Source: Planctomycetota bacterium (GTDB lineage Bacteria > Planctomycetota > MHYJ01 > WSZJ01). From it: a stretch of DNA of 64,000 nt. Shown here one piece after another: positions 4,940-50,156 of the stretch. The notes under the pieces were generated by a model, which had not been told where the DNA came from, ran no database searches, and was given only the letters and a program-made list of their open reading frames with translations. The DNA is taken from the NCBI GenBank assembly GCA_009773755.1, contig WSZJ01000030.1, positions 7,955 through 71,954 of the forward strand. The letters are read 5' to 3'. A program made the position numbers and the translations under genes. Positions within the stretch are counted from its first letter, which is position 1, and each line of letters opens with the position of its first letter.

Positions 4940-4990
4940 CTCGGGATCTTAGTCCCGCACTTCGCGCCCCTGCCTTAGAATTCCGGCGCC

Positions 4991-6780: not shown

Positions 6781-6782
6781 CC

Positions 6783-6948
6783 AAGTAGCTCCTCGATGAT
6801 TCTGGCCCATCCAGCCGCCGCGAATTTCGTCGGCCCGCAAGGAGGAGACCGGAACTGGAGCGGAACGGAGCTCCAGTGAGGATCGACGACGCTGCGGGAC
6901 GACGAAAGGCGCGCGGATGGATGGGCCAGAATCATCGAGGAGCTACTT
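6783..6948. repeat. 166-bp rod-like palindromic element (31-bp perfect terminal inverted repeat)
   Basis: AAGTAGCTCCTCGATGATTCTGGCCCATCCA (6783-6813) is the exact reverse complement of 6918-6948. The interior continues to pair imperfectly (TTTCGTCGGCCCGCA vs TTTCGTCGTCCCGCA). The apex is a 7-bp hairpin, ACTGGAG...CTCCAGT (6854-6877). Confidence 0.85.
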
Positions 6949-14994: not shown

Positions 14995-17900
14995 ATGTCC
15001 AGTCCGCCGGAATCAGTGCTGGCCCTCGGCGATTCCGAGGAATTCGTCAAGCGCTCGCTGGGCGCGCTCGAGGGTCGATTCCGCGAACTGGCCCTGCGAT
15101 CCCTTGCATCCTGGGACGGGGTCGGAGTCGTCTCCGTTGAACTGTTCGCCGCAGTTGCGGCGTTGCAGCGGCCTTCCTGGGGATCCTGGAACGGCCTCCT
15201 TACGGCGCTTCGGAGCGCACGAATCAACGTCCTCCGGGGGCGAAGCATCGGCGAGCGAGAACGGGCAGGGGGAGCGACGCGCCTGGCGGAGGTATTGGCC
15301 CGACTCGACGAACCGGCCGGCCTGGATGTGCGAGGACTGTCGGAGATCCTTCGCGTACCTCTCCCTCGCGCCAAGGTCGGGGACGTGCTGGCGCTTCCGA
15401 TCGTGCTCCGAAACCGCGTGGTGCACGACATGCCTGCGGACGCCGCGTGGTGGAAGCGTGCGGCGGAAGCTCTTCGGCCCCTGGTAGCGTGGCAACTCGA
15501 GTCTGCGGACCTGAGGTATGAAGGAGACGCGAGCCCGTGGGTCGTGGCTGAGGGAGGCGAGACCTGGGCATTTAACGGTCTCGGTGCCGACTTCGCCGCG
15601 ACATACGTTTCGAGAACCGGGACGGTCCGGCATGACGAAGAGCGAGGCCGCGCGATTCTGCAGGCGTGCAAGCGGCTGATGGGGAAAGAAGAGGTCCAGG
15701 AGACGGATTTCAGGCGGCTGATGACGAAGCTGGCGCCGGAGGATCTCAAGGGCGTGATGATGGGAGACTTTCTTGTCGGAAGACCTGTCGGAAGCGGCGG
15801 GTTCGCCGAGGTGCATTCGGGTCGGCAGCTTTCCACCGGGCGACGAGTCGCGGTCAAGATCCTCCACGACGGCACGGACGAAGGAGCCCGCGCCCGGTTC
15901 CAGCAGGAGGCCGCGTATCTCGCCCGATTCGATCACCCCAACATCGTGAAAGTGCTGGGATTCGGGGAGGAGAGCTGGACAGCGCCCAGGGCATTCAGCC
16001 TTTCTTCGGAGGACTGGTTCGTCAAGTTCTCGCGAGGCGCGGCTGTCCGATCGTTCATTGCGCTGGAGTGGGTCGAGGGGAAGACCCTGGAGGAAGTATT
16101 CCGAAGCGGGCGCCCCAGGATCAAGTCGGCGACCAGCTGGTTTCTCCAGGCCGCGGAGGCGCTCACGGTCGTTCACGCGTTAGGCCTGATTCATCGGGAC
16201 GTGAAGCCAGGAAATCTGATGGTGACGGACGCCGGGTTGATCAAGCTCATGGATTTCGGAATCGCGCGAAGCCAGGGCGAGGTGCGGACGCTGATGACCA
16301 CGGCAGGCGCGTCGCCCGGCACTCCGGCCTACATGAGTCCCGAGCAGATACGGGCCCGAGACCAGAAAGAGGAGCTGGGCCCCGCGACCGACGTGTATTC
16401 CCTTTGCGCTACTTTTTACGAACTCATGAGCGGGAGGAGGCTCTTCGACCACGACCGGGAAAGCGAGGACATGGTCAAGACACGCAAAGTCCGCGGCGAC
16501 CTTCCGCCCAGTCCCAGGCTTCTTGCCCCGAAACTGCCCTGGGAACTGGAGACGATCATTCTTGGCGGCCTCCAGAAGGAAACGGGCGACCGCTACCGGA
16601 CGATGGAAGGTCTGAAGCGCGACATCCAGCACTACATGCGCTACGAGCCCATTGAGTATCGAAAGCCGTCTCTGGCAAGAAGGGCGGCTCTTGCCTGGCT
16701 CAGGAACCGGGAGAAGTACCGTCCTGTCTTCCCGCTGGCTCGAGCCCTGGCGGCCGTTCTCGTCGTCGTTGCGGCCACCCTGTTCGGCCTTGGAATGTGG
16801 AAGAAAGTCCGGAACGCGAGCGCTGTGACAAGGAACATTCGCGATGCGGCGCAGCGGGGCGCCGACGCGCGGGCGAAAGGCGACTCTCCCAACGCCAGCG
16901 CAGCCTTTGCCGAAGCGTACGCCCTCGCCGTTCTGTCCGGGAATCCGGAGGATCGCGAGGCCGGCGTGAATGCGCTACTCGAGCTCGCAAAGGAAAAAGA
17001 ATCCGTGAAGGACTGGCGGCACGCCAGAGGCGCCTACCGAACACTTCTGGCGCAATTCCCGGATTCGAACCGGGAGGAAGCCGCCCGTTACGGTCTGGCG
17101 AGAAGCGAAGAAGGCCTGGGGCGGGCTGAAGCGGCCTACGAGGGATTCAAGGACGTGCTTCGCAGGGGCAAAGGGAACGCGGAAATGCTGGAAGCGTCTC
17201 GCCGGTCCCGCGACGTTTACGCAGCTCTCTTCCCCGTGACGGATTTTGAGATTCCGGAAGGGCACTACGCCGTCGGTGAACTCGATGATCTACCAGGGCC
17301 CGAAATCGCTATCTGCGGAGCGGATGCGACCATCACCGTTCTTACGCTGCGAAACGGGGCCCTGACCACGCTGTTTTCCGGAAACAATGACCCAGGGCAG
17401 AGCGGCGTGCAAGGGCGCGTCTGGATCGAAGATGTGGACGGCGACCGTAAGAACGAAATTCTCGCAGCCTGGGGGGCTGGGTCAGAAGAGCGAGGTGGCC
17501 TGAACATCTGGCGCCTGGGAGCCGCAAATCTCCGGATGACTGCCTTTCTCGATCTCAAGACGCGGGAAGCGGCGCTTCGCGTGGACGACCTGGACAGTGA
17601 CGGCCGCCCCGAGGTGATTGTCGGCATCGGATACTTCGCGCGGCGTGTCCGCATCTTCCACGTTGACCGAGCGGACGGCGCGGATGCTCATCCGGGCGAC
17701 ACGGTTTCCATCGTGGGGGATTATGTCCCCGACACTTCCTCGGCGACCTTGAGGCAATCGGTGCGAAACGTTTCGCAGGTGATTCCCACGCGATTCGGTG
17801 CCGGGCCCTATACCTTCGGTAGCGACGGGTTTTTCGTCGCCACCGGCGAATACGGCCCCGATCCTGGCTTGGAGATATTTGCGGTCTTCGGCGGGTGGTC

Positions 17901-19845
17901 CTGCTACCAGGGGATGGTCCTTCGATGGGACCCTGCGAGCCGTGACCTGCGGGAGGTCGCCCAGGCCCCGTGGCGGGTCCACGCTCCCTGGTGTTGCATG
18001 CTTCCCGGAGGCACTCTTGTCCTCGCAAACTTCATTCACCCCGACCACGCCAGCTCTTTGCAGCTGTCGACGAGGTTTCAGCCGGGCGAGTTGATGGAAA
18101 ACGGGCTGTACCTGGTGGAAGCGCCCGCGAACGGGCGCATCGCCAACCTGCGCCTTCGCAGCGCGCTCGGCAACGACATCGATGTCTTGAGCGTCACTTG
18201 GGCCCGGCTGGGAGGCAAGCTGCATGTGGTGGTCTCGCTGAAGCCTGCACCTGGCTTTCGGGGAGAGCCGCGCATCGTCATTTACCCGCTCGATGAAAGC
18301 GACCTGACTCGACCGATTGAAGCGCCCGGCGAGACTCAGCTGAGTTCGTACGACCTGGACGGCGACGGGGAAAGCGAGCTCCTTTCGCGATGGACGTGCT
18401 ATGGCGGCCATAGGCTCCGCGTCCGAGGCTACGGGCAGGCCCCGACGACCGCCCACTCCGACACTCCCGTCGGCCACGCGGATCTCGAAACCAGCCTCGC
18501 TCGCGGCCTGCCCGAGGCCGGGCAGGCCGAAGAAGCGCTGGTCAAATTCAGGGAAGACCAAGATCACCTCGGAGCAGGCCAGGCGCTGATGGAATTGGCG
18601 GACATGGCGGGCAATCAACGCGACAAAGAAGGCCGACTGCGGAGCGCCGCAGACGAATTTCAGAGGGAGAACAAAGACAGAACGCGCGCGCTCTGGCGCG
18701 CCCTGGAGTGCCGGCTTGAAGGGCGAGACTGGGCTGGCGTTTCAGGAACGACCGACATGCTTGGAGATCGCATGGACCTGGATCCGCTCGATCGCTCAAG
18801 ACTGTCGGAGATGCGTGGGCGGATTCGCGAGATGAGGTCCTGGATCCGACATCGGACTGAACCTCGTCGCCGCGAGCACTCCATGAATCTCGACCAGTTG
18901 CCCGTCTGGAGCGCCGAAAACCCCTTCCTGTGCCGCAAAGCCGACGACAGTCTCGAGTTGCTGGTCCTCCATGAAGACAGCCGGGGCGCGGGGATCCCGC
19001 TCCTCTACACCGGCGGACCTCTGCTGCTGGAATGGGAAATGCGCCTCACCCGCAACGCATTCCCAACCCCCGTCGAAATCGGCCTCGCGGGACCCGATTC
19101 GCTCTTCGCAGGGTTCTCCGAAAGCGGCAGCGAGCAGAAACCGAGAACCCTCTGGAGTCTCAGCTGGCATGCCGGGCCGCTTCCGGGCGGGAGCTCGTTC
19201 ATGGAGCCCGACCGGTTCAAGCCCGAAGTCGGCGACTGGTTTTCCGTGGCCATTGAATATGTGCCCTGGATGCGGCGCGCCTGGATGGAGTGCGAACGCA
19301 AGGAGGACCACCAGTTTTATGGAACCAGCGTCCTGATGGATTCACCGCTGAGGCCGGGCTCCTATGTGTTCGGATTGAAGGGGCGGAACGAAAGGAGGCC
19401 GGGCGCAACCTACTCATCCGTCCAGATCCGGAATTTCCGCATCGCCTCTTCCGACGATGGAACGAAATTTCAAACGGAGCCGTCGGCACAGACGGCCGAA
19501 TGGAGAGTGCGCTTCGCGGAGGCCAACGGGCTGCTCGCCCAGGGAAGCGGGCCTCAGGCTGACGGCGGCTTGCTCATGCAGAAGCGCGCGCAGGAGGCGA
19601 TCCTGCGGTACGACGAGCTTCTGGCAGAGATTGCGGCCCCGCGACCGCGCACTCAGGAAATGGACTTGCGCGAATTCGCCGTGAGGTTTTTCAGAGCCGT
19701 CGCTCTCGCGCGAACGGGATTCCGGGACGAGGCACGCTCTCTGCTCGTCGCGCTCGAAGAGTCGAATGCGGACGAATTTCCGGTGCTCCGCGCAGAAAGC
19801 GAGATCGGCATGAGCGCGGAGGACCTCGAACTGCTGGGAAGATGA
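14995..19845 (+). CDS. giant membrane Ser/Thr protein kinase with TPR and FG-GAP/VCBS-like propeller regions
   Basis: Kinase motifs VGSGGFAEV...VAVKIL...HRDVKPGNLMV...DFGIARS...GTPAYMSPE. TM segment ALAAVLVVVAATLFGLGMW. DVDGDRKNEIL / DLDSDGRPEVIV / DLDGDGESELL FG-GAP-like repeats. Confidence 0.85.
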   Translation: MSSPPESVLALGDSEEFVKRSLGALEGRFRELALRSLASWDGVGVVSVELFAAVAALQRPSWGSWNGLLTALRSARINVLRGRSIGERERAGGATRLAEVLARLDEPAGLDVRGLSEILRVPLPRAKVGDVLALPIVLRNRVVHDMPADAAWWKRAAEALRPLVAWQLESADLRYEGDASPWVVAEGGETWAFNGLGADFAATYVSRTGTVRHDEERGRAILQACKRLMGKEEVQETDFRRLMTKLAPEDLKGVMMGDFLVGRPVGSGGFAEVHSGRQLSTGRRVAVKILHDGTDEGARARFQQEAAYLARFDHPNIVKVLGFGEESWTAPRAFSLSSEDWFVKFSRGAAVRSFIALEWVEGKTLEEVFRSGRPRIKSATSWFLQAAEALTVVHALGLIHRDVKPGNLMVTDAGLIKLMDFGIARSQGEVRTLMTTAGASPGTPAYMSPEQIRARDQKEELGPATDVYSLCATFYELMSGRRLFDHDRESEDMVKTRKVRGDLPPSPRLLAPKLPWELETIILGGLQKETGDRYRTMEGLKRDIQHYMRYEPIEYRKPSLARRAALAWLRNREKYRPVFPLARALAAVLVVVAATLFGLGMWKKVRNASAVTRNIRDAAQRGADARAKGDSPNASAAFAEAYALAVLSGNPEDREAGVNALLELAKEKESVKDWRHARGAYRTLLAQFPDSNREEAARYGLARSEEGLGRAEAAYEGFKDVLRRGKGNAEMLEASRRSRDVYAALFPVTDFEIPEGHYAVGELDDLPGPEIAICGADATITVLTLRNGALTTLFSGNNDPGQSGVQGRVWIEDVDGDRKNEILAAWGAGSEERGGLNIWRLGAANLRMTAFLDLKTREAALRVDDLDSDGRPEVIVGIGYFARRVRIFHVDRADGADAHPGDTVSIVGDYVPDTSSATLRQSVRNVSQVIPTRFGAGPYTFGSDGFFVATGEYGPDPGLEIFAVFGGWSCYQGMVLRWDPASRDLREVAQAPWRVHAPWCCMLPGGTLVLANFIHPDHASSLQLSTRFQPGELMENGLYLVEAPANGRIANLRLRSALGNDIDVLSVTWARLGGKLHVVVSLKPAPGFRGEPRIVIYPLDESDLTRPIEAPGETQLSSYDLDGDGESELLSRWTCYGGHRLRVRGYGQAPTTAHSDTPVGHADLETSLARGLPEAGQAEEALVKFREDQDHLGAGQALMELADMAGNQRDKEGRLRSAADEFQRENKDRTRALWRALECRLEGRDWAGVSGTTDMLGDRMDLDPLDRSRLSEMRGRIREMRSWIRHRTEPRRREHSMNLDQLPVWSAENPFLCRKADDSLELLVLHEDSRGAGIPLLYTGGPLLLEWEMRLTRNAFPTPVEIGLAGPDSLFAGFSESGSEQKPRTLWSLSWHAGPLPGGSSFMEPDRFKPEVGDWFSVAIEYVPWMRRAWMECERKEDHQFYGTSVLMDSPLRPGSYVFGLKGRNERRPGATYSSVQIRNFRIASSDDGTKFQTEPSAQTAEWRVRFAEANGLLAQGSGPQADGGLLMQKRAQEAILRYDELLAEIAAPRPRTQEMDLREFAVRFFRAVALARTGFRDEARSLLVALEESNADEFPVLRAESEIGMSAEDLELLGR

Positions 19846-22015: not shown

Positions 22016-24946
22016 ATGGGTCCTGCGCGCCGCGCCCTCATGAAAACTCCTTCCCACTCCCAGATCCTCGTCCTTCTGGCTGAGAGCGATCCCGCCTCCG
22101 TGAAGGAGATCCGGACGAGGCTTTCTGAGCCAGGCGATCGGTCGATCCACCTCGAAGTGGTGCCCTCAATCGCTGACGCATTGCACCGCCTGGCCAAGGG
22201 CGAGGTAGGTGCGGTGCTCCTCAGCCTGAACCTCCCCGATCTCACCGGCCCGGCCGCGGTCGCCGCGCTTCGCGCCCGCGCGCCTCTGGTCCCCATCCTC
22301 ATCCTAGTCAATCCGGAGGACTCAGCCCTCGGAGGCGAGTTCATCCGCGCCGGAGCCCAGGACTACGTTGTCCGCGGCACGATCAACGCCAGTTTCCTTT
22401 CGAGGCGCATCCGCAGCGCGATGGAGCGGAAGCGGATCGACGAGGAGGAACGGTTGCTGACGGTGCTGTCGCTGGCCGTCGGACAGTCGGAAGACTTCGA
22501 AAGGGCGATGGAGCGGGCGCTTCGCGACATCTGTGCCTTCACAGGCTGGGACTTCGGGCAGGCGTGGATTCCGGATTCGACCCAGCGCAAGATCGACCCC
22601 GGCCCCTTCTGGCTCGGTTATCCGGCCCTTCACTCGTTCCGGACCGCCAGCGAGAAGTCGGTGACAGGGTACGGGAATGGTCTCGTCTGGAAGGCGTTCC
22701 TCAGCCGCAAGCCACTCCATTTCACCGATCTGTCGGCCGAGCCGTCGTTCTTCCGCGCCTCCGACGCAGCCGAGGTCGGCCTCCGCGGAGGACTGCTTTT
22801 CCCCGTCCTGGCAGGCAAGGACGTCGTCGCCGTCATCGAGTTTTTCATGCGGAACCCGAAATCCGAAGATGCCCGGCTCCTCAACGTCGTCGCGGCGGTC
22901 GCCGCTCAACTTGGCCAGGCGTTCCTCCGGCGCAAGATCGAGGGAGAACTGCTCCTGAGCCAGGAACACTTCAGGAAAATCGTCGAGATCACGTACAACG
23001 GCTACATGATCCAGGAGTCGGGGATCATTCGGGAAGTCAGCCCGGGCAACGCGTCTGTCTTCGGTTACGCCCCTGCGGAGCTGGTCGGCCGCAACGTCCT
23101 CGATCTTGTCGTGCCGGAAATGCGGGAAGAGGTCAAGCGCTACTACACGCCGGAATTTGAAGGCGTGTACGAGATCACGGGACTGCGTAAGGACGGGTCG
23201 CGCTTTCACGCGGAAGTCGTGGGTTTCAATCACCGCTGGAAAGGGTGGCCCGCGCGGATCGGCGCGGTGCGGGACGTTTCCGACCGACGGACGGCCGAAG
23301 AGCGACTGGCACGGCTGAACGACTGCTTCGTCACTTTCGGGCCGGACCCTGCCGGGAACATCGATCGACTCACGTCTTTCTGCGGTCAGGCGATGAATGG
23401 GCTCTGGTCCGTCTACTTTTCAGCCGAAAGCGAAAAGCCGATTCTGCCGGCCTCCCAGTGGCAGGTCCCCGCCGGCTTCGCGTCTGCAGGGAGCCCGCTC
23501 GTCGTATTTGCGCACCAGGTCCTTGGCTCGGCACGGACCGACCTCGTGGTCGGCGGCGGTCGGCCGCCGGTCCGCCACGGCGACACGAACCCCAACATCC
23601 TGCGCGGCCCCGAGGCAACCCTCGTCGGGCGCGTCGTCTGGTGCGGCGGCGTTCCTCGCGGCGGCCTCTGCATCGCCCTTGCCGGCAAGGCCGAACCGAG
23701 CCGCGAAGATTCCCGCTTCATGGGCATCATCGCCAGCGCGATCGGCGTCGAGGAAGAACGCCGCCTTGCCCAGCAGAAACTGCAGGCGATGGAAGAGAAT
23801 CTCCGGCAGACGACGAAGATGGAGGCGATCGGGCGGCTGGCCGGCGGCGTCGCGCACGACTTCAACAATCTGCTCACCGCGATCATCGGGTATGCGGAAC
23901 TTGCGAGGGACCGTTTTTCGGAGTCGGACCCGACGCGGAAGGAAATGGACGAGATCCTGAAGGCCGGCGAACGCGCTTCCGGTCTCACCCGCCAGCTTCT
24001 CGCCTTCAGCCGCAAGCAGGTGCTGCAGCCGCAGGTGCTTGAACTGAACGCCGTGGTGACGGACATGGAGAAGCTGTTGCGGCGGCTGATTGGCGAGAAC
24101 ATCCGCCTCGAGATGTCCCTGTCGACCGATGCAGGCAGGATCCGGGTCGACAGGAGCCAGGTCGAGCAGGTCATCGTCAACCTCGCGGTGAATGCGCGCG
24201 ACGCCATGCCCAAGGGCGGCCGGCTTACATTGAAAACGTCGAACATCCCTGCCGTGGAAGTCGCCGCCACGCCAGGGGGGGGCGCCACGCCGCCCGCCGC
24301 CTTCGCCCGCCTTTCCGTCTCCGACTCCGGCGTCGGCATGAGCCCGGAAGTCATCGCTCACCTGTTTGAGCCCTTCTTCACCACCAAGGAGCGCGGCCGG
24401 GGCACCGGCCTCGGCCTCGCCACCGTCTACGGAATCGTCCGCCAGAGCGGTGGCCACGTCGTCGTCAACAGCACGCCGGGCCAGGGCTCGACGTTCGACG
24501 TCGACTTGCCGTGCGTCGAGGAAGCGGGCGTTGAGAAGGCGCCGGAGCGGCCGCGCGCGGCGCCGACCGGGCCCGAGACCGTGATGATCTTGGAGGATGA
24601 GGAGCAGCTGCGGGTCCTGATGGTGAGAGCGCTTCGGGGCCTCGGGTACACCGTTCTTGAAGCGGGAGAAGGCGCTGAGGCGATGCGTGTCGCCGCCGCT
24701 CACGCGGGCGAGATCCATCTGCTGGTCACCGACGTCGTCATGCCTGGCGAGAGCGGCCCGCAAGTCGCGACCCGGATCGCAGGCGCGCGCCCCTCGATGC
24801 GCATCCTCTACATTTCCGGCTACACGGACGACGCCCTCAGCCGGCACGGCCTGGTCGACAGCGAAATTGAATTCCTGTCGAAGCCTTTCACCCCGCGGGC
24901 ACTGGGCGAAAAAGTGCGCGAGGTTCTCGAGAAACGGCGGTCGTGA
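22016..24946 (+). CDS. hybrid sensor histidine kinase (REC-GAF-PAS-HisKA-HATPase-REC)
   Basis: N-terminal REC (ILVLLAESDP...). H-box GRLAGGVAHDFNNLLTAIIGY. N/G boxes NLAVNARDAM...DSGVGM...GTGLGLATVYG. C-terminal REC VMILEDEE...LLVTDVVMPGESG...LSKPF. Confidence 0.85.
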   Translation: MGPARRALMKTPSHSQILVLLAESDPASVKEIRTRLSEPGDRSIHLEVVPSIADALHRLAKGEVGAVLLSLNLPDLTGPAAVAALRARAPLVPILILVNPEDSALGGEFIRAGAQDYVVRGTINASFLSRRIRSAMERKRIDEEERLLTVLSLAVGQSEDFERAMERALRDICAFTGWDFGQAWIPDSTQRKIDPGPFWLGYPALHSFRTASEKSVTGYGNGLVWKAFLSRKPLHFTDLSAEPSFFRASDAAEVGLRGGLLFPVLAGKDVVAVIEFFMRNPKSEDARLLNVVAAVAAQLGQAFLRRKIEGELLLSQEHFRKIVEITYNGYMIQESGIIREVSPGNASVFGYAPAELVGRNVLDLVVPEMREEVKRYYTPEFEGVYEITGLRKDGSRFHAEVVGFNHRWKGWPARIGAVRDVSDRRTAEERLARLNDCFVTFGPDPAGNIDRLTSFCGQAMNGLWSVYFSAESEKPILPASQWQVPAGFASAGSPLVVFAHQVLGSARTDLVVGGGRPPVRHGDTNPNILRGPEATLVGRVVWCGGVPRGGLCIALAGKAEPSREDSRFMGIIASAIGVEEERRLAQQKLQAMEENLRQTTKMEAIGRLAGGVAHDFNNLLTAIIGYAELARDRFSESDPTRKEMDEILKAGERASGLTRQLLAFSRKQVLQPQVLELNAVVTDMEKLLRRLIGENIRLEMSLSTDAGRIRVDRSQVEQVIVNLAVNARDAMPKGGRLTLKTSNIPAVEVAATPGGGATPPAAFARLSVSDSGVGMSPEVIAHLFEPFFTTKERGRGTGLGLATVYGIVRQSGGHVVVNSTPGQGSTFDVDLPCVEEAGVEKAPERPRAAPTGPETVMILEDEEQLRVLMVRALRGLGYTVLEAGEGAEAMRVAAAHAGEIHLLVTDVVMPGESGPQVATRIAGARPSMRILYISGYTDDALSRHGLVDSEIEFLSKPFTPRALGEKVREVLEKRRS

Positions 24947-25293: not shown

Positions 25294-25300
25294 GCCGGCC

Positions 25301-25334
25301 AATAAAAACGGGGCGCCCGGTTTGCCGGCGCCCC
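25301..25334 (-). terminator. intrinsic terminator for the minus-strand thioredoxin-fold gene
   Basis: GGGGCGCCCGG-TTTG-CCGGCGCCCC hairpin (25310-25334). On the minus strand it is followed by GTTTTTATT (25301-25309). It lies between convergent genes. Confidence 0.6.
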
Positions 25335-25357
25335 GCAAGTTCAACCCCGGTTGGACC

Positions 25358-26227
25358 TCACTTCACCCGGTTCTTCTCTTTCTCCACGATGTCCGCCATG
25401 GCTTGCTCGGCTTGCTTGCAGACGGGGAGTCCTTTGTACTGGGCGATGACCTTCTTAAGTCCTTCTTTCGCGCGCGGGAAGTCCGAGGCGGCGGCAGCTT
25501 CCGTCGCCTGTTCGAGGAGCGCCTTGCCGGATTCATTGAGCCTGTTGAGGCCGTCCTGCGCGCGGCCCGCCATCGTCTTCGCGCCCGGCGCCTTCTCCTG
25601 CTTCACGACGGTGTTGTAGGCCTTGATCGCCTCCGCGATCTTGCCGTCCGACGCGGCCTTGTCGCCCGCGGCGATCTGGTCGCCCATGAAGGTGTACTCG
25701 TCCGCGCCCAGCCCGGGGCCGACTTTCTTCGCCGCTTCCGCCATCTTGTCCGTGAGCAGCTTCGTGGCCATCGCGCCCTTTTCGCGTCCGATTTCGTTCC
25801 CCTCGACATCGCCCCAGATGTGGTGCGGCATGAGGATCGAGCCCTTGAAGAATTTTCCGTTCAGCTCCTGGTAGGCCTGGACGTGTTCTTCGCACGTGAT
25901 GCTCGGAATGATCGAGCACATCTCCTTGTCGCCGACCTTTTTCGTCCCGTGCGTCGTTTCCTTGTTGCAGTAGATCGAGACCCACTTCTTCGAGCTTCCC
26001 ACGAAATCTTTGTTCGGATAGACGGAGCCGTCCATCGTGGTGCAGCCGCCTCAGCCGTCCTTGTGGAACGCGAACATGATCGGCACGTTCCGCGTTTTTG
26101 CTTCTTCCTGGGCTTCCTTCCAGCTGTGGGCCCAGCGCATGGCGGGGCCGGAGCCGTCGGGCGGTTTGGCGAGTGCGACCGCGCCGGTCAGGGCGATCGC
26201 GATCGCGGTCAGGGACAGGTGGCGCAT
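25358..26227 (-). CDS. secreted thioredoxin-fold protein with in-frame TGA in a U-G-G-C motif (candidate selenoprotein)
   Basis: ORFs 26051..26341 and 25358..26035 share a frame and are separated only by TGA 26053-26051. The junction reads ...NVPIMFAFHKDG-TGA-GGCTTMDGSVYPNKDF. AAGGAG SD, ATG 26227 and signal peptide MRHLSLTAIAIALTGAVALA. Confidence 0.7.
26017..26036 (-). promoter_or_regulatory. candidate bacterial SECIS hairpin
   Basis: Starts 14 nt 3' of the TGA. 8-bp stem GAUGGACG/CGUCUAUC (one G-U pair) with a GCUC loop. The apical loop is about 22 nt from the UGA. Confidence 0.45.
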
Positions 26228-26430
26228 GGCTTCTCCTTGAAGGGGCGTGAGGTTCTTTGGAAAGAGGACTTGCGGAGACGGTCTCTGTTTCAGGAATACG
26301 CCGCGCCTGCGGCTTGTATTCCGCTGAAATGTCTCGGACAATCCGGAGATGCTAGGGAATCAGCGGCGGAAAAGCGACGCCGAATGCGGCACAAACATGA
26401 CTTAAGTGATCACCTATACGCGGTTTGCGA

Positions 26431-27549
26431 CTACTCGCCCGTCGCGCCTCCCACGTCGTCATCCGCGGCCCCCGTCGTGCGGTGCGCCGCCGGCGCCGCC
26501 GACCCCGGCTCAAGGTTGATGAGGTCAATCATCTGCCTCAGCCGCCCCTGATTTCGCCGGTTGAAATTCATCGCCAGGCGCGGAAGGTGCGCCACCCGCT
26601 CCTCGCGCGCCTCCTCCGGATGCACTCCCGTCATCTCCAGGTCCCCGCCGTGGATGTCGGCGAACTCCGCTTTCAGTCGCGCCACCGTCCCGGCGGACAG
26701 CGGCCCGTTCAGGCGAATAATGAAGCGGCCCTTCACGTACCGCGAAGAGTTGTACACGCGGTAGAAGTTGCAGATTTCGTCGCACGCCTCGTTCACGGAG
26801 TAGGCCACCTTGAAGAGCCGGTTGTCCTCTTCGCTCACGAGCCCGCGATAGATCAGCCGCTCGACGAATCCGTGCCAGTCGGCCCAGTAGGTCCCGCCGG
26901 GCGCGTCGACCATCACGAGCGGAATCGGCACCGTCTTTCCCGTCTGCACCAGCGTCAGCGTCTCGTACATTTCGTCCATCGTCCCGAACCCGCCCGGGAA
27001 AAACGCGACGCCGTCCGCTTCCTTGATGAACATCAGCTTGCGCGTGAAGAAATACCGGAAGGTGACGAGCTTCTTGTCCCCGTAGATAACGGTGTTGGCG
27101 CGCTGCTCGAACGGGAGCCGGATGTTCACGCCGAAGGATTTCTCGGCCCCCGCGCCTTCGTTCCCGGCCCGCATGATCCCCGGCCCGGCGCCGGTGATGA
27201 TCATGAATCCGCGCTTCGCCATCTCTTTCCCGAATTCCAGCGCCTGCTTGTACCCCAGGTGGTCCGTCGGCGTCCGGGCGCTGCCGAAGACCGAAACTTT
27301 TCGAACTTCTTTCCAGGGAGCGAACGTCTTGAAGGCGTAGCGGAGTTCTTTGAGCGCGCTGGAGACGATCTTCACGTCGCCGCGTTCGGCGGAGTCGTCG
27401 GCGAGGCGCAGCGCGGTGACGATCAACTCGCGGACGAGGTCGGCGTTGCTGGTGATGGCGAGTTTTGTGAGCAGCTCATCCGCGGCGCGGTCGAACGCGC
27501 CGAAATCGCGGCGGAATCCGGGGATGCCGGGTTGGGAATCAGGGGGCAT
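26431..27549 (-). CDS. LOG family / TIGR00730 Rossmann-fold protein (long form)
   Basis: VSVFGSARTP...FMIITGAGPGIMRAGNEGA...PGGFGTMDEMYETLTLVQTGK are LOG hallmarks (PGGxGTxxE). Confidence 0.8.
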   Translation of the reverse strand: MPPDSQPGIPGFRRDFGAFDRAADELLTKLAITSNADLVRELIVTALRLADDSAERGDVKIVSSALKELRYAFKTFAPWKEVRKVSVFGSARTPTDHLGYKQALEFGKEMAKRGFMIITGAGPGIMRAGNEGAGAEKSFGVNIRLPFEQRANTVIYGDKKLVTFRYFFTRKLMFIKEADGVAFFPGGFGTMDEMYETLTLVQTGKTVPIPLVMVDAPGGTYWADWHGFVERLIYRGLVSEEDNRLFKVAYSVNEACDEICNFYRVYNSSRYVKGRFIIRLNGPLSAGTVARLKAEFADIHGGDLEMTGVHPEEAREERVAHLPRLAMNFNRRNQGRLRQMIDLINLEPGSAAPAAHRTTGAADDDVGGATGE

Positions 27550-34979: not shown

Positions 34980-35633
34980 ATGCAAACTCTGACAGAGAAG
35001 GTGATGAGGCTGGACCCGCCGGGGTCGCTCTTCGATGAGGCGGTCCTTCACAACCTGTTCCCCGAATCGACGTCGGGCGCGAAAAAGCTTCTCGTACATC
35101 GAAGCGTCCAGCACGGAGAAGTCGTCCGCCTGAAACCCGGGATCTACTGCCTCGCACCCGAGTATCGGAAAACCCATGCCCATCCGTTTGCCGTCGCCGC
35201 CACCCTCCATTCGCCGTCGCACATCAGCCTCGAAAGCGCGCTGGCCTGGCACGGCCTGATCCCGGAGGCCGTGGCGCAGGTCTCCAGCGTGACCGTCAGC
35301 CGCAGCCGCATCTTCGACACGCCTCTCGGGACCTTCTCCTTCCAGCGCGTCCCCTGCACTGCGCCGCGGGCCGGCGTGCGGGCGGTGAAGCTGGACGCCA
35401 GCAGCTGGGCTTTCGTCGCCATGCCGCTTCGCGCGATCGCCGACCTTGTCTATCTGCGAAAGGAAATTTCCTGGGATCGCGACGGCCTTGGATTTCTCAC
35501 GGTTTCCATGCGAATGGAAGCGGATGAACTCCGCGAACTACCCACGGAAGATTACACGCCGGTCCACAATGCCATGCGGAATCTGAGAACGAAACGCTAT
35601 CTGGAAGGACTGAAGAAGGAGATGAGCCCATGA
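34980..35633 (+). CDS. abiEi: AbiEi-family antitoxin/transcriptional regulator
   Basis: Internal ATG 34980. VRLKPGIYCLAPEY...FAVAATLHSPSHISLESALAWHGLIPEAV is the AbiEi_4 pattern. Confidence 0.75.
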   Translation: MQTLTEKVMRLDPPGSLFDEAVLHNLFPESTSGAKKLLVHRSVQHGEVVRLKPGIYCLAPEYRKTHAHPFAVAATLHSPSHISLESALAWHGLIPEAVAQVSSVTVSRSRIFDTPLGTFSFQRVPCTAPRAGVRAVKLDASSWAFVAMPLRAIADLVYLRKEISWDRDGLGFLTVSMRMEADELRELPTEDYTPVHNAMRNLRTKRYLEGLKKEMSP

Positions 35634-36502
35634 TGAAGGACATTCTCTCGGACAGACTGAAGGAGTACGCGCCGGCAAACGCCATCGAACAGGAAAACGC
35701 GCTCGCGGAAATCATGCAGCATTACGTGCTCGCGAGCCTCGCCCGCGCACGCTTCTTTGGCCGGGCGATCTTTCACGAGGGCACATGCCTGCGCATCCTG
35801 TATGGATTGCATCGCTTTTCCGAGGATCTGGATTTCGTCCTGAAGGATGCAGACCCTGCGTTTGACTGGAAATCCTGCGTGGACCGCATTCGTCATGATT
35901 GCGCGGCGGAAGGGATCCAACTGGACGTGCAGGGGCGCGCCGGGAAAGAGACCGCCGTTCGAAAGGTTTTCCTCAAAACGGATTCGATCGGGCAGATCCT
36001 CAACCTGGAGTTGCCCTACGCGAGGCATGCCACCCGGAAAATCCGCATCAAGCTGGAAATTGATACCAATCCTCCGGGAGGCGCGACCTTTGAAACGCGG
36101 TTCATCACCTTCCCGATGGCCACCGCCATCACCTGCATGGACCTGCCCTCCGGCTTCGGATCCAAATGTCATGCCCTGCTCTGCAGCGAATACGTCAAGG
36201 GCCGCGACTGGTACGACTTCCTCTGGTACGCGTCCCGGAAAGTGACGCCGAATCTCGACCTGCTGTCGCATGCCCTCGCCCAGCAGGGCCCGTGGGCCGG
36301 GCAACAGATCGCTGTCACGACAGCCTGGTTTCTCAAAACGCTGCGATCCCGAATCATGGAAATCGACTGGCGGGTCGCCGCGCAGGACGTCGCACGCTTT
36401 ATCATGACGCGCGAACAGGAGGGGCTGCGTGTGTGGTCCGCCCCGCTGTTTCTCCAGCATCTGGAAGACCTGGCCGGGAAGATGGCGGAAGCCGGGCGAT
36501 GA
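35630..36502 (+). CDS. abiEii: AbiEii/AbiGii nucleotidyltransferase toxin
   Basis: ATGA overlap with abiEi. EQENALAEIMQHYVLASL...FHEGTCLRILYGLHRFSEDLDF is the DUF1814/AbiEii pattern. Confidence 0.8.
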   Translation: MMKDILSDRLKEYAPANAIEQENALAEIMQHYVLASLARARFFGRAIFHEGTCLRILYGLHRFSEDLDFVLKDADPAFDWKSCVDRIRHDCAAEGIQLDVQGRAGKETAVRKVFLKTDSIGQILNLELPYARHATRKIRIKLEIDTNPPGGATFETRFITFPMATAITCMDLPSGFGSKCHALLCSEYVKGRDWYDFLWYASRKVTPNLDLLSHALAQQGPWAGQQIAVTTAWFLKTLRSRIMEIDWRVAAQDVARFIMTREQEGLRVWSAPLFLQHLEDLAGKMAEAGR

Positions 36503-36931
36503 AGTCATGGGCGATGGTGAATGCGGATACGAACTACGGACAAACCTGCACGTACCGCCTCCAGACCTTCTTCCGCCGACCCGGTAGCCTCCAGAAATCC
36601 TCACTCCCGTGGAACCTCGAGGTCATCCGCCTGCGAGCCTCCTCGAGGCGCGACAACCCCCTCGAACGCCGACGTGATCGACGTCACCAACGCAGGCGAC
36701 TCCCCGGCACCAGGAGGTAGAACCGTCCCGAGAAGTTCGGGTTCCGTCACGGGCGGGTAGCATCGGCGCGACGTGCGCGAACCTGACGCGGCCGTGCGGG
36801 CCAACGAGCCATTCGCTCGACGCGGCGCAGCGGGGTCGGTAGCGTCGTCGGGATGAAGAGGGCGACAACAGAGCGAATTCCGCGCATCTGCCCCTTGAAC
36901 ACGGGCGGTGCCTAGTTTCGAGGTAGAACTC

Positions 36932-37909
36932 ATGACCAAAGCGAAGGGGCACGACCCCGCAGTGTTTCCACCACCGATGGACCTGCCGAAACTCAATTCC
37001 GTCGAAGAAGTCGTGAGTCTCCTGCGGAGGGGGAATCACCGCCTCTATGTGCGACCGGCAGGTGAGATCCCCCGTTCTCCTGATCGCTGGTACGTCGCCC
37101 GAAATCCGCTGCCCTCCAGCGCGGCTGACCCACTTGTCCGAATCCATCGAACCGAGTCGGCCGCGCCCGGCGCAGAGTATCTGGGTGCCTGCTTCGATGG
37201 CATCATCCAAGGTGACGCGATCGCGGAAGTGCCTGAAAGCGTTTGCACGCAGATCGAGTCGAAACTGGACTCGGACGAGCCGATTCGGTGGCTCTCGACT
37301 CGGCCGATCGTCCGCACGTTCCTGTACCTCGACATCTCGGACTTCTCGACCTACCCTCCGGGGCAGCAGGCACTGATCGTGGCCTGTTTGCCGAAGTTTG
37401 TTAGTGAAGCTCAAAAGGGCCGCCGCGCGGAACACACTGGAACACCGCAGCAGATGATCTGCACAGGCGACGGCTACATCTTTGTCTTTCTCGATCCAGT
37501 GGCGGCAACTTGGTTCGCGGCACAGCTCGCCACGGAGATCGACTACGCCGTCGCGAAGCCTATGGGTTCAGTGGAGATTCACTACCGCATGGGAATTCAC
37601 ATCGGCGAGGTTTTCCCTTTCGAGGAAGGCGCAGAGCGAAATCGCTGGAACTTCGCTGGCGACGGTATCAACGGAGGCCGGCGGGTGCTCGACGCGATCG
37701 GAAGGAATGCGGACGACTTGGTGTTTCTGTCCGGAGACGTCGTGAAGTCGATTCATGCAAAGGCTGAGTGCTCCACGGGTTTCGGCGAGATCATGCAGTA
37801 CTTGGTGAATCGGGGACGGAGAAAGGACAAGCATAAGAAGCCTTGGCGGGTATATGAGCTGAACCACAGGGATGCCGCCTCGAACTCAAGGCAGATCAAG
37901 CCATCATAA
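36932..37909 (+). CDS. class III nucleotidyl cyclase-domain protein with unknown ~125-aa N-terminal domain
   Basis: ATG 36932 (GAGG SD). RTFLYLDISDFS (metal Asp), ICTGDGYIFVF (second Asp), YRMGIHIGEV and NFAGDGINGGRRVLD (Asn/Arg) are collinear with adenylate/guanylate cyclase catalytic motifs. Confidence 0.65.
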   Translation: MTKAKGHDPAVFPPPMDLPKLNSVEEVVSLLRRGNHRLYVRPAGEIPRSPDRWYVARNPLPSSAADPLVRIHRTESAAPGAEYLGACFDGIIQGDAIAEVPESVCTQIESKLDSDEPIRWLSTRPIVRTFLYLDISDFSTYPPGQQALIVACLPKFVSEAQKGRRAEHTGTPQQMICTGDGYIFVFLDPVAATWFAAQLATEIDYAVAKPMGSVEIHYRMGIHIGEVFPFEEGAERNRWNFAGDGINGGRRVLDAIGRNADDLVFLSGDVVKSIHAKAECSTGFGEIMQYLVNRGRRKDKHKKPWRVYELNHRDAASNSRQIKPS

Positions 37910-38550
37910 GTTCGCGATCTGCGCGGGGCGCGAGATCCTCGATGACGGCATGGAGGTTGCCTTTGACGAGGCGACAGACAGGCAGTGGTTCGTGATCGAG
38001 GGCACTTAGCACGCTCAAGCGGGGATACCGTACTGCGCAGGGAGCGGCTTGGCCGAAGCGGCGTTCGCCTTCTTCGCCGTCCACGTCTCGTGCTCATCCC
38101 GTCCAGCCCAGCTTCGCCGCGATCGGCCGCAGGTGCCGCTCGGTGAACGGGACAGAGGGTACGCGGTCCCCTCTCGGAGTTCATCGTGCTAGGGGGTCGA
38201 GACGGTTCGGAAAAGAATCTCTTCTAGTGTCGAGGAGCTTCGATTCGACGACCCTGCGAACCCCTTCGCTTCTCAACAACCTGGCCGAGCGCCAAACAGC
38301 CCGGCGAAGGGATCGTCGGAACTGGAGACCCAGGGCGAAACCAGCCTGTGATTTGAATCCAAGGGATGGGCGCATCAGCCGAAAGAGTTCAAGGATATAA
38401 CCCCACGCCGACTGTTCCAAGACTGAGCCTTGAGCCTGAGACCCGCCTGCTGCCGCCCCGGAGTACCGGCGAGTAATTGCAACGCCTGCGATCGTCGCCA
38501 ATTTGGGGGCGCGCGCCCGCGTTGATCGGGCGTCCCCGCGAGATTCCACT

Positions 38551-41430
38551 CTACACGCTTCTCGCCTTCGAAAGCAGTTCCTCCATGGTGGCGAGATCAC
38601 GTTTCACTACGACCTCCGGCTTGATGAGCTTCATTGCATTGCCTGCGACCTCGACCTCTTCACTGCTCCATTCTTTTGGCAGGGCTCCGACCCAAGAAGA
38701 GCTGATAGGTCCCACGAGAATCCTGGGAATCGCCGATCTTCGGTCGTTCGACGCGGTCTCCGCAAGTCGCTTTGTTTGCTTCGCCGAAGCACTGTTCTTG
38801 ACAGAGATCAACTGGCCAAGCGGCCCAGATCCCACTTTGTCATGTGTAATTCCAAAATATGGGCGCCAAGGCGTGACAGGCTCCGGCTGCAGTAGCAGCG
38901 AATGTTCGTCACCGATTGTTAATCCCCAAGACGCCCCTCGTATCGCATCCACGCCTCGCTGATAGACCCCAAGACTCTTGTCGCCAGCATCCTCAACAAT
39001 CGGAGCCAGACGCCCTCCGAAGACTCGGGACCAATTTAGCAAAGCGTGAATCCCCCTCCTATGCCAGAGAGGTGCTGTGTCGGGAGGAACTCCGGAGGAT
39101 CCCGCCAGATCTACATAACTTAGGTACGCCTCAAGACTTTCGCCGGAGGCGAGTCGAACCCTGTCGGCCTCATAAACCTCTGCGACCTGATCCGCGCCAA
39201 GCAGGGCAGCGGCCCACAATTCAAGCCTTCTCAGCAGTTTCTTGATCGCTTCATGGGTGGTAGCTGATCCAACAGAATCCGCTTCTGGAACCATTAGAAG
39301 GGCGAGCGACTCAACATCCCTTGTGGCAACTCGATCTACACCTAATGCCGTGGTCGCATATGTGGCGACATCCGCGTACCACTTCCATGCACGCAGCAAC
39401 AGACCATCGGGACGTACCCGCCGCACCAGACTCTGGCGCAGATCTTCGTTGTAGGATCCAGTCCGGCTCGACAAGGCGCCATCGATCTCGGGTTGGATTT
39501 CCTCTGACTTGCCCAGGATTTCGACTTTTGCACGCAACCCTGCCAGCGACGCCAAGGCATCGTCCGGCGAACGCGTCGCCCGGGCATCAGGAAAGATAGA
39601 ATCAGTTCGTACCTGTTTCGGATTTGCCTCTAGGTAGGCCTCCAACCCTGAAAGCGCCTCCGAGACGTTTTCGCAAAGGTCGCTCAATCCTCCGTCATTA
39701 GTGCCATGGAGACTCACGTACAGAAGGCGCTGCAGAGTTGTGAACTTCGAGGATGACGAGTGGCAACTGTTCATGATCACTTCCATAGGTGCGATGAAAG
39801 GGGCTAGTCGAGATTCGCGCTGAATTGAGCGCCTAAGACTATCGAATCCCGGTTTCAATACGTACTCTTTCTTGACGGTGTCATACGCATAAAGCTCACT
39901 GAATATTGTTGGAAGGGGCTGTGGCCTACCATTGACATTTGCGCTGGCAAGACGCCCGAATGTGTAGTGGCCAGCATTGGCATGCTCAATTTGCATTCCA
40001 AAATTATGCTGCAGAATAGCAACGGTCTTCTCTATCGTGCCTCGAGAAGCCACGCCTCCCATCATGTGCGTTGCAAAAGCAATTATCATCTCAATCAGGT
40101 GCCGCTCTTTTCTTGCGTTCTCCCCGATCTCTGTCAATCGAAGCGCGCGAGCATGGTCTTCTCTATAAAAGGCGGTCGCTTGAACATAGTCGCACAGTGC
40201 ATCAACTGCAGCATGAATTTCTAGAGGCGACGAGCCCTCCGGAGGGCATTGCAACAGTTCGGAGATTGTTTCGCCGTGGGATTCCCACTTTCTCACATCA
40301 AGGCAGTGGCGATTATGTTCCAAGTACGAGGAATTAAGTCGATCCCGAATCTTCACCATCGTTTCCAAGTAGTCAATCGAGCGACTGTTGTCTTCAATTG
40401 CTCGTTCCATGACTTGCGAGTGAGGATTTCTCAGGTGTTGCAAGATCGCAGGCATTAGGTCTTTGGCAATCGCATTCCCATAGTACCTGATCAGGGGGGT
40501 TGTGTTCGGAGTGACCCGTTCGCGAAGGTTCCTCGGTGAGAAGACATCGGTATTCAAGTACCGGGCCGCCAGTTCAACTCTCAGGCCAAGACTATTCGCA
40601 TCGAAAACGTCCCTCAATCTCGCCCCTGGACCTGAGGTTCCCGATCGAATCATGTCAGCGTAGCCAGCCGCCAGTGCAAATGCTGAGTCCGGCGTTCTCT
40701 TTCGATGATTCGCAAACGCCATCGGCACTAACCTGAGGGTTCCTGAAGATGGCGAATACCAAAGGCGAATTTTGGGAGGAACATCAAAGCTAGGTGGATT
40801 GTCCAGTCTGAATAGAACGCTCGCCGTCAAATGGTCGCCTCGCTTGCCGTAATCAAGGACGTTTCCAAAGCGTGCCGAGGACCGAAGCAACTCCAACCAG
40901 GAATCGTTTGATACTGATTCCGCTTCAAGCACAACTTGATTTGGTCCTGACGGATAGTAGTGATCCAAGCAAATGTCCTGTAACGACCGAAAGAAACGTG
41001 CGTATTCTTCTGGTGACGATACTTCGTAACCGATCTTGACATCGGGTGGCGGGGCAGATAGCGCGGGCCTGCCTGATCGCGGCAATCTTGTAAACAGCAG
41101 GGCATACTTATCAATTGTAGAAAAAGGTCGGCTGCGTAGGTCATTGTAGATCCGTCGTTGAACGCCACCAGCAAAGAGCGTATCGTCAATTAGTGCGGCG
41201 CGCTTGCCGATTAACTGTGAATCGGGAACAAAATCGAATGCCCTCGGGAGCATGATTGTTGGGTTCCGCGCCAAAAGGGGCGGCGCGTTGCGCTTGAGGA
41301 TCTCAAGTGTACGGTCGAGAAGAACTGTGCCCTTGCCCGGCACTGGAATGAGGTAGTCATAGTTCTGGAGGAGAGCGTTTCTTGCGAGGAAGTCGGCCAA
41401 GATGCCAAGTAGTTCTGTCATTCCCTTCAT
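38551..41430 (-). CDS. 959-aa protein: N-terminal phosphoribosyltransferase-like domain, long helical middle, possible palm-like C-terminus
   Basis: YLIPVPGKGTVLL... and KRAALIDDTLFAGGV resemble the PRTase PRPP-binding loop (acidic pair then T-x-G-x-T-like). C-terminal YVDLAGSSG...EDAGDKSLGVY...FGITHDKV is weakly cyclase/GGDEF-palm-like. Low GC. Confidence 0.6.
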   Translation of the reverse strand: MKGMTELLGILADFLARNALLQNYDYLIPVPGKGTVLLDRTLEILKRNAPPLLARNPTIMLPRAFDFVPDSQLIGKRAALIDDTLFAGGVQRRIYNDLRSRPFSTIDKYALLFTRLPRSGRPALSAPPPDVKIGYEVSSPEEYARFFRSLQDICLDHYYPSGPNQVVLEAESVSNDSWLELLRSSARFGNVLDYGKRGDHLTASVLFRLDNPPSFDVPPKIRLWYSPSSGTLRLVPMAFANHRKRTPDSAFALAAGYADMIRSGTSGPGARLRDVFDANSLGLRVELAARYLNTDVFSPRNLRERVTPNTTPLIRYYGNAIAKDLMPAILQHLRNPHSQVMERAIEDNSRSIDYLETMVKIRDRLNSSYLEHNRHCLDVRKWESHGETISELLQCPPEGSSPLEIHAAVDALCDYVQATAFYREDHARALRLTEIGENARKERHLIEMIIAFATHMMGGVASRGTIEKTVAILQHNFGMQIEHANAGHYTFGRLASANVNGRPQPLPTIFSELYAYDTVKKEYVLKPGFDSLRRSIQRESRLAPFIAPMEVIMNSCHSSSSKFTTLQRLLYVSLHGTNDGGLSDLCENVSEALSGLEAYLEANPKQVRTDSIFPDARATRSPDDALASLAGLRAKVEILGKSEEIQPEIDGALSSRTGSYNEDLRQSLVRRVRPDGLLLRAWKWYADVATYATTALGVDRVATRDVESLALLMVPEADSVGSATTHEAIKKLLRRLELWAAALLGADQVAEVYEADRVRLASGESLEAYLSYVDLAGSSGVPPDTAPLWHRRGIHALLNWSRVFGGRLAPIVEDAGDKSLGVYQRGVDAIRGASWGLTIGDEHSLLLQPEPVTPWRPYFGITHDKVGSGPLGQLISVKNSASAKQTKRLAETASNDRRSAIPRILVGPISSSWVGALPKEWSSEEVEVAGNAMKLIKPEVVVKRDLATMEELLSKARSV

Positions 41431-41714
41431 GAAGTGTTCCTGAGCTATTATATGATGTGTGAGTACCCGTCAGTACTGAATTGATTCTTGACGCTCTTTG
41501 GACTCCCACCAAGGGAGTCAGAGATTTCTACCTCATGCGTGGCACCGAATCAAGTGAAACCAGCTTCCGTCGTCGGGAGTGTGGCAACATTTTCATAAAC
41601 CGCGGGTCGTGGAGATGTAAGGTACCAAGACCTTCTTCATCGTCGTGATTTGCGGAGCTCGAGGGCAGGCGGGCTTCGTATCTGAGCCTTGCTTTTGCAA
41701 GGTGGGAGACACTG

Positions 41715-44591: not shown

Positions 44592-44659
44592 GAGGGTGCG
44601 AGGTCGGCAATCGTCGCGAGCCGTCCTCGTCTGTTGGGACGAGAGGGCAATCGCGGCAA

Positions 44660-46132: not shown

Positions 46133-46487
46133 GTAGACTCGCCTCGATCGAGGGGTGTTCGACCTTGATCGCCGTCCCACACATAAGGTTCACAATCATA
46201 CAGAGGTACTTCAACTCTGCCGTGGAGAGTTCAGTTGTCTGAAACACCGTTCCTTGCCTGAGCCCAAGAGCCGCGAGAGCTGCGCCTCCAGGAACCAAGC
46301 GGGGGCGGGATCGTTGTCGAGAGAGAAGCGCGCCGGTTCCGGATCGCGTTCGGAAAAAGGCGGACGGCTTTGAGTCCACACCCGGTAGGGCGAGCCGGTC
46401 TGAATTCGGACTAGGACGATGCTGGGCGCCACAGGAACTCAGCGCATGTCCTACTCACGCAGGAGTGATTGCATTCTGACCGGGCTT

Positions 46488-48794: not shown

Positions 48795-48798
48795 CGGG

Positions 48799-50064: not shown

Positions 50065-50156
50065 CGTACTACCTCCTTAACTCTGCTCCGGAGAGTGCTT
50101 CGGGGCCCAAGATCCCATCGAAAGGAGAGGCTCGGATTCTCCCCATGAGGGATGGG

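Follow-up and report, generated by a model that had tools for sequence, protein, structure and literature searches.

A candidate exported thioredoxin-fold selenoprotein of Planctomycetota with a conserved in-frame UGA, a SECIS-like hairpin and cysteine counterparts

Thioredoxin-fold proteins with a UxxC motif represent the commonest class of predicted bacterial selenoproteins, e.g., the thioredoxin, DsbA-like, DsbG-like, thiol-disulfide isomerase-like and thiol:disulfide interchange (PF13098) proteins that are listed in Table 1 of PMC13188914. The current study deals with a locus that resembles this class and is located on a 64,000-nt stretch of a metagenome-assembled genome (MAG) of a Planctomycetota bacterium (GenBank assembly accession number GCA_009773755.1, contig WSZJ01000030.1, positions 7,955 to 71,954); this whole stretch is referred to as the window, and all positions without a further label are those of the window. 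Two open reading frames (ORFs) at 25358 to 26227 on the minus strand, which are separated by a single in-frame TGA, are very probably one intact gene and not two fragments. Comparison with homologous genes makes it very likely that this candidate gene encodes an exported thioredoxin-fold selenoprotein, the selenocysteine (Sec) of which derives from a recoded UGA. The features of the gene and its surroundings are as follows.

25358 to 26227, minus strand: entire coding region of the candidate selenoprotein (289 codons and the terminal TGA).
26234 to 26239, minus strand: Shine-Dalgarno-like AAGGAG, 5 nt 5' of the ATG at 26227-26225, read from the sequence.
26168 to 26227, minus strand: predicted signal peptide MRHLSLTAIAIALTGAVALA, followed by KPP, with an A-x-A cleavage motif, read from the sequence.
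26051 to 26053, minus strand: in-frame TGA, the proposed Sec codon, at the first position of the U-G-G-C redox motif.
26042 to 26044, minus strand: TGC, the resolving cysteine (Cys) of UxxC, which is the invariant C62 in the family alignment A1.
26017 to 26036, minus strand: SECIS-like hairpin (SECIS, selenocysteine insertion sequence) GAUGGACG-GCUC-CGUCUAUC, stem 26036-26029 / 26024-26017, loop 26028-26025.
25358 to 25360, minus strand: terminal TGA of the candidate gene.
25301 to 25336, minus strand: terminator-like G+C-rich hairpin, then UUUUUAUU, 21 nt past the stop, from a fold of 25296-25360.

The locus had been pointed out in an earlier note made from the sequence alone, which described two ORFs in one frame that are split by the TGA at 26053-26051 and assigned the AAGGAG motif and the ATG start to the upstream piece. 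Every one of these coordinates was confirmed, and both signals were found in the sequence where the note had placed them. The read-through product comprises 289 residues (...VPIMFAFHKDG-*-GGC-TTMDGSVYPNKDF...), and the peptide across the TGA reads ...FHKDG-U-GGCTTMDGSVYPNK. In the two stop-to-stop pieces, which share the same frame, the G+C content at third codon positions amounts to 0.76 and 0.87 (window, 62.5% G+C), and the codon-position composition of both is that of real genes in the window. GenBank contains the 3' fragment alone, annotated as a 225-aa "hypothetical protein" of a Planctomycetota MAG (FD180_1464 / KAF0245596.1). The hairpin behind the stop codon was found by folding; a scan with a terminator consensus missed it because its stem is bulged.

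The first question is whether the TGA is real. An error in sequencing or assembly, with TGC or TGT as the true codon, has in its favor the mere prior that MAGs contain errors, but it is extremely improbable. Three independent assemblies from different runs, i.e., two from ENA and one from Logan (L007, L008 and L009), are identical to the candidate gene in 870 of 870 nt, and orthologs from unrelated samples have the same codon. All three assemblies read TGA at the place where the earlier note had named TGC or TGT as the outcome that would speak against it; because they agree over the entire 870 nt, the codon is not an assembly error. The TGA is moreover conserved, as it is found in the same column in 15 genes (the window gene, L001, L002 [= L003], L004, two tandem genes in L005, L010, L012 and L014 to L020). 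The 14 others share 29 to 77% protein identity with the window protein, and all of them stem from Planctomycetota or from unbinned metagenome contigs. A scan of the GTDB species representatives detected 13 loci, nine with TGA (down to 29% identity), one with Cys and three that have lost the motif; these loci are all from Planctomycetota MAGs save one that is labelled just "bacterium", and the MAG of the window is not among them.

This distribution also bears on the possibility of a pseudogene, in which a nonsense mutation has interrupted a former CxxC thioredoxin-like gene. The presence of the downstream fragment alone in GenBank, as a hypothetical protein, would agree with such a decay. However, the 15 genes share the TGA down to 29% identity without any other disruption, a one-base reversion to TGC or TGT was possible yet has not been taken, and purifying selection acts on the upstream piece; a pseudogene is accordingly hardly credible. 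The selection on the upstream piece is documented by the 28 codons that precede the TGA, in which the substitutions among 13 genes are distributed over codon positions 1, 2 and 3 in a ratio of 414/388/978. Because the substitutions fall mostly on third positions, this piece is translated in the given frame and maintained by purifying selection, and coding selection is seen on both sides of the TGA. A global reassignment of UGA was considered and rejected, since the codon is an ordinary stop elsewhere in the window: TGA ends 7 of the 16 confident genes, including the candidate gene.

A different interpretation takes the output of the gene callers at face value, because exactly the same pair is predicted in every carrier, and would recognize two real genes, one for a 58-aa secreted peptide and one for a protein of 225 aa with ATG 26035 as its start codon. 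This interpretation is very improbable. The thioredoxin fold and the CxxC motif cross the junction, the Cys forms of the family are single proteins of 287 aa, and ATG 26035 is located inside the stem of the hairpin without a ribosome-binding site of its own. The split itself is a regular trait of the family: four homologs with 40 to 76% identity are each called as a protein of 221 to 229 aa from the same Met, and each of them is preceded on its 5' side by an ORF for 55 to 60 aa that ends in TGA at exactly the same column. In the best 150 representatives of 50%-identity clusters, the first Met after the TGA is the exact start of 27 predicted proteins, and 6 short proteins terminate right before this codon. 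The expectation of the earlier note that a gene caller would break up the gene thus proved correct, with the 225-aa fragment as the sole GenBank entry and two fragments in every carrier examined, and the same is true for its statement that neither piece is sensible on its own. Taken together, the pseudogene, the assembly error and the two-gene interpretation are contradicted by the data.

The Cys counterparts provide an independent view of the TGA column. The homolog P0004 (encoded at L006; 287 aa, 48% identity) aligns end to end with the read-through product, and both P0004 and the gene at L011 have HKD[GN]-C-P-K-C with a TGC codon where the window protein has HKDG-U-G-G-C. Cys is also present at the TGA column in P0247, P0254, P0268 and P0329. 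Among solved structures, AGR2 (a member of Thioredoxin_7 with the motif CPHS) came closest to the family profile, and its active-site Cys matches the Sec column. Sec and Cys are hence paired at this position, and the proposal that the TGA replaces the first Cys of a Thioredoxin_7-type CxxC motif, for which the earlier note had recommended an alignment of homologs, is upheld by P0004 and L011 as well as by the catalytic Cys of AGR2.

The second line of evidence is the hairpin directly downstream of the TGA. It consists of 8 bp and a 4-nt loop with G in first position, is separated from the UGA by a 14-nt spacer, which results in a UGA-to-loop distance of 22 nt, and has a calculated energy of -9.5 kcal/mol. 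For bacterial SECIS elements, the constraints given in PMC13188914 are a loop of 3 to 9 nt on a stem of 4 to 16 bp, G in one of the first two loop positions, a distance of 16 to 37 nt from the UGA and a minimum free energy (MFE) of -7.5 kcal/mol or below; the hairpin at 26036-26017 lies within all four. Stem, GCUC loop and the distance of about 22 nt had already been described in the earlier note, together with the resemblance to bacterial SECIS elements, and were recovered with identical coordinates.

The same TGA and the same hairpin are found in 12 further genes. Covariation was counted on the 13 genes that can be aligned without gaps, and L019 and L020 were handled separately, because MAFFT misaligned the distant L019. 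Within the 13 Sec forms, 98.1% of the cells are paired. The outer stem pair is G-C in 10 and C-G in 3 of them, i.e., a compensatory change, and the loop-closing pair is A-U in 6, G-C in 5 and an unpaired A.C in 2, and G is still the second loop nucleotide in the two A.C intermediates. In 500 shuffles, a covariation score as high as the observed one was never reached, and the pairing was lost when the partner column was shifted. The codon choice in the stem points in the same direction. Three synonymous sites (GAC, GTC and TAT) within the invariant stem pairs are frozen in the 13 closer Sec forms, and the tyrosine (Tyr) codon TAT is invariant, though TAT accounts for 15% of the Tyr codons in the confident genes of the window; it is the sole TAT among the six Tyr codons of the candidate gene. 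Two Cys forms keep the M-D..V-Y residues but encode them with GAT, GTC or GTG, and TAC, and the hairpin is not formed in the Cys forms (-3.5 kcal/mol). The distant genes at L019 and L020 encode other residues at this place, yet they have a hairpin with G as first loop nucleotide at 18 and 24 nt from the UGA. An Rfam scan of the window matched tRNA-Val, which is its sole tRNA, and none of the general bacterial SECIS models.

With respect to the protein, residues 32 to 75 match Thioredoxin_7 (PF13899; E = 4.5e-5), and the C-terminal part has weak Pfam matches to TPR, all of them below the cut-offs. For P0004, precomputed domain assignments comprise PF13899 (weak) and PF13098. The AlphaFold2 model of this Cys homolog has a predicted local distance difference test score (pLDDT) of 72.7 overall and above 90 in the helical domain. 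It displays a thioredoxin topology in which the CxxC motif (55-58) precedes, at its N-terminal end, the helix (63-75) that comes after the strand at 46-51, then strands and helices, and a C-terminal part of six long helices; the pLDDT is low in an insert of about 45 residues, which contains three conserved Cys. The top Foldseek match of the whole chain is Escherichia coli YbbN/CnoX (3qou; E = 3.6e-4). The further matches were DsbH, ERp19, AGR2 and DsbD-gamma for the N-terminal domain, with TM-scores of 0.5 to 0.6 normalised to the target, and YbgF/CpoB for the C-terminal domain. The N-terminus is hydrophobic in every full-length homolog and would represent a signal peptide of the Sec secretion pathway.

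Selenocysteine machinery was detected in related genomes, in which selB co-occurs with the family. A search with the SelB protein of L006 as query yielded 7993 matches. The SelB protein P0013 is encoded on JAIOPR010000123.1, which belongs to the assembly with the TGA forms L012 and L018, and the SelB protein P0014 on JABWAY010000113.1, from the assembly that contains the TGA form L017. At L006, selB is even located directly upstream of two family members. L006 was the one match when SelB was compared by tblastn with a subset of the loci, and no adjacent family member was revealed by tblastn in the three selB loci L023, L024 and L025. These three loci, all from Planctomycetota, have a conserved neighborhood of their own, with a divergent queuosine-synthesis gene upstream and an extracytoplasmic function sigma factor gene downstream of selB; ARAGORN found no tRNA gene in any of them (12 to 22 kb each). 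The cluster at L006 is organized as follows (positions of L006).

2895 to 2985: tRNA-Sec-like gene with GCA anticodon.
3065 to 4996: selB.
5148 to 5966: family member with TGC.
6001 to 6864: family member with TGC.

The tRNA gene of this cluster measures about 90 nt, scores 46.1 bits with RF01852 (gathering score 47), has the anticodon GCA and a U after the acceptor stem, and adjoins selB and the two Cys-codon family members on their 5' side. These traits agree with the operational definition that has been published for tRNAReC/selC*. The hairpin 3' of the UGC codon is weak in one of the two Cys forms (6 bp, -5.7 kcal/mol) and missing in the other.

This tRNA is the basis of the only serious rival to a selenoprotein, namely, that the UGA of the candidate gene is recoded by means of SelB and the hairpin but that a tRNASec-like tRNACys (tRNAReC/selC*) delivers Cys, which would result in an ordinary CxxC product. 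The existence of the gene 5' of selB and two family members at L006 speaks in favor of such a mechanism, and for tRNAReC, decoding of UGA as Cys has been reported when a SECIS element is present (Vargas-Rodriguez 2018, cited in PMC13582414). On the other side, a tRNAReC-like gene was seen solely in the genome whose family members use TGC, and none is present in the window. The retention of UGA and hairpin in many lineages, next to Cys forms without the hairpin, is furthermore the classic pattern of a Sec/Cys pair. Because the tRNA was seen only beside TGC forms, and because retention of both the UGA and the hairpin is what the use of Sec predicts, insertion of Cys is regarded as quite unlikely, and the recoding of the UGA as Sec is preferred.

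Some observations weigh against a selenoprotein and have to be balanced with this evidence. The window of 64 kb contains no selA, selB, selD or tRNA-Sec (about 50 ORFs scanned), and neither SelB nor selA, selC or selD of this MAG was located; none of eight GenBank SelB matches has a KAF02... accession. Of the checks recommended in the earlier note and carried out, Sec machinery in the same genome is the only one without a supporting result. The MFE of the 71-nt hairpin region does not stand out from that of shuffled sequence (z = 0.12), which is why the hairpin was judged by comparative evidence. Six of its eight stem pairs are invariant and overlap the conserved residues M-D...V-Y; since these pairs never vary, the support from covariation is limited to two pairs. 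At the protein level, the Pfam scores are under the gathering thresholds, both for Thioredoxin_7 (23.9 versus 27) and for Thioredoxin_2 (PF13098; 17.7 versus 27), and the active-site loop (residues 53 to 64 of the structural model) has a pLDDT below 50.

If the gene encodes a selenoprotein, its expression would proceed as in other bacteria. SelB with GTP and Sec-tRNASec would bind the 8-bp hairpin that starts 14 nt after the UGA and supply the ribosome with Sec, so that translation continues instead of terminating. The product of about 29 kDa would consist of a signal peptide, a thioredoxin fold of the Thioredoxin_7 type and a TPR-like all-helical domain, with Sec as the nucleophilic first residue of the CxxC motif (U-G-G-C). 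Export to the periplasm is suggested by the predicted signal peptide with its A-x-A motif. The mature protein would there cycle between the selenolate and a selenenylsulfide with Cys62, and the helical domain would probably hold client proteins, as in the thioredoxin-TPR protein YbbN/CnoX. Based on the signal peptide, the thioredoxin fold and the helical domain, the product is thus interpreted as an exported thiol/selenol-disulfide oxidoreductase with a client-binding domain; insertion of selenium, route of export as well as substrate and direction of the redox reaction are the elements of this scheme that we infer.

The family as a whole is more diverse than its Sec forms. In the MAG JAIOPR01 (L011, L012, L013 and L018), four paralogs were found, two with Sec, one with Cys and one without a redox motif, and the contig of L005 carries two tandem paralogs (705-1568 and 1578-2156), both with an in-frame TGA. 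Among the relatives P0249 to P0393, the first Cys is absent from most full-length members; in many, the second Cys of the motif is the only one left (e.g., HKDGSAPC and QQDNNPGC), and a large subgroup of about 400 aa lacks any Cys at the motif (IQDGEEANERIV). Because the first Cys, or both, is absent from most full-length relatives, the family probably includes many redox-inactive members. A wider scenario would be an uncatalogued family of exported Trx7-TPR proteins, confined to Planctomycetota, that switches again and again between Sec, Cys, single-Cys and redox-dead forms, at times even inside a single genome. In one lineage or more, the members with a Cys codon are arranged like an operon together with selB and a tRNASec-like tRNA (GCA), and from this arrangement one might expect that SelB delivers Cys or Sec at the UGC codons of these genes. 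This combined scenario is possible but rather doubtful.

A second gene with an in-frame TGA is located on the plus strand of the window.

58289 to 59692, plus strand: gene for a TrsS/Tes-like radical S-adenosylmethionine (SAM) protein and putative selenoprotein, with in-frame TGA at 59441-59443.
59458 to 59472, plus strand: hairpin CCCGGC-GGU-GCCGGG, 6 bp, 14 nt after the UGA, -10.3 kcal/mol.

The GenBank entry for this gene is a fragment of 384 aa (KAF0245622.1). The homologs have the full length (455 to 480 aa), and six of them show Cys at the TGA column. Cys is also present there in P0396 (JGI, same 90%-identity cluster), with ...CCGPGES-C-GPS compared to ...CCAPGES-U-GPD in the window. The distance between UGA and hairpin is 14 nt in both the radical SAM and the thioredoxin-like gene. 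This second pair of UGA and Cys counts, like selB in the related assemblies, as good indirect evidence for Sec machinery. The MFE fold of the radical SAM region picks a structure other than the hairpin at 59458-59472. The best NCBIfam match is NF045646 (TrsS; 328.9 bits, E = 3.9e-98), which extends over nearly the full length of the model (positions 3 to 437 of 441), and the TrsS family is known to include selenoproteins. The gene differs from TrsS in that it does not reach the equivalog cut-off of 490 bits and that the model of the tetraether lipid synthase Tes scores nearly equally (275.5 bits).

The gene directly upstream of the candidate gene, on the same strand (26431 to 27549, minus strand), belongs to the LOG family / SLOG cluster 4 (Lysine_decarbox). 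Its pairing with the selenoprotein gene recurs in L001, L002, L007 and L008; this synteny points to no function. In a 1616-aa ORF at 14995 to 19845 (plus strand), a Ser/Thr protein kinase domain is located close to the N-terminus, and the long rest of the protein is uncharacterised. This ORF is followed at 22016 to 24946 by a gene for a hybrid histidine kinase of 976 aa, which has two receiver domains. The region from about 35600 to 53300 has a lower G+C content (0.53 to 0.60) than the rest of the window (about 0.65). Its genes code for an AbiEii toxin-like nucleotidyltransferase, an ATPase of 958 aa (AAA_21/SMC-like), a CHAT-domain protein and a DUF7379 protein, next to several large ORFs without Pfam matches, and the region looks like an acquired defence island.

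Because gene callers split the gene in every carrier examined, a family of exported redox enzymes that is widespread in Planctomycetota would be effectively invisible in current annotation. Its recognition adds a selenoprotein family to this phylum, and many annotations could be corrected with a curated model. As a natural series, the forms with Sec, with Cys and without activity lend themselves to studies on the retention or loss of selenium, and the tRNA(GCA)-selB cluster beside the Cys forms of L006 bears on the question of the role of tRNAReC. With respect to previous descriptions, the thioredoxin-like protein of the window stays below the cut-off of every NCBIfam selenoprotein model, the family is absent from the 2026 list of 119 selenoprotein families, Planctomycetes are unmentioned in the 2026 selenoproteome review (PMC13188914), and a full-text literature search retrieved no paper that describes a selenoprotein family of Planctomycetota.

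Among the described systems, the UxxC selenoproteins of PF13098 and the other thioredoxin-fold UxxC selenoproteins resemble the window protein in the thioredoxin fold, the Sec (proposed for the window protein) as the first residue of UxxC, the existence of Cys homologs and a hairpin of the SECIS type directly after the UGA. The window protein differs from them by its score for PF13098 (17.7 versus 27), the TPR-like domain and the insert of about 45 residues with three Cys; furthermore, its family has so far been seen in Planctomycetota only. The PF13098 selenoproteins are represented by WP_011366075.1. NF041199 (Trx7/PDZ) likewise contains a Thioredoxin_7-type domain and has weak similarity over its first ~58 profile positions, but the window protein scores 17.2 bits against a cut-off of 300 and has no PDZ match, and NF041199 is listed as CxxU, with Sec in second position, in contrast to UxxC. 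YbbN/CnoX (3qou), in which TPR follows a thioredoxin domain, is the best structural match for the two-domain chain as a whole; however, the TM-score amounts to 0.29 to 0.30 at 10% identity, and the window protein has a predicted signal peptide and UxxC. CnoX is a cytoplasmic protein and is not known to have a CxxC motif. Among solved structures, AGR2, ERp18/ERp19, DsbH and DsbD-gamma come closest to the N-terminal domain, but the similarity is marginal (E ~1e-3), and none of them has Sec or the helical domain. The candidate gene of the window therefore appears to represent a new family within a well-known kind of bacterial selenoprotein, with a textbook mechanism of Sec insertion in a hitherto uncatalogued protein family.

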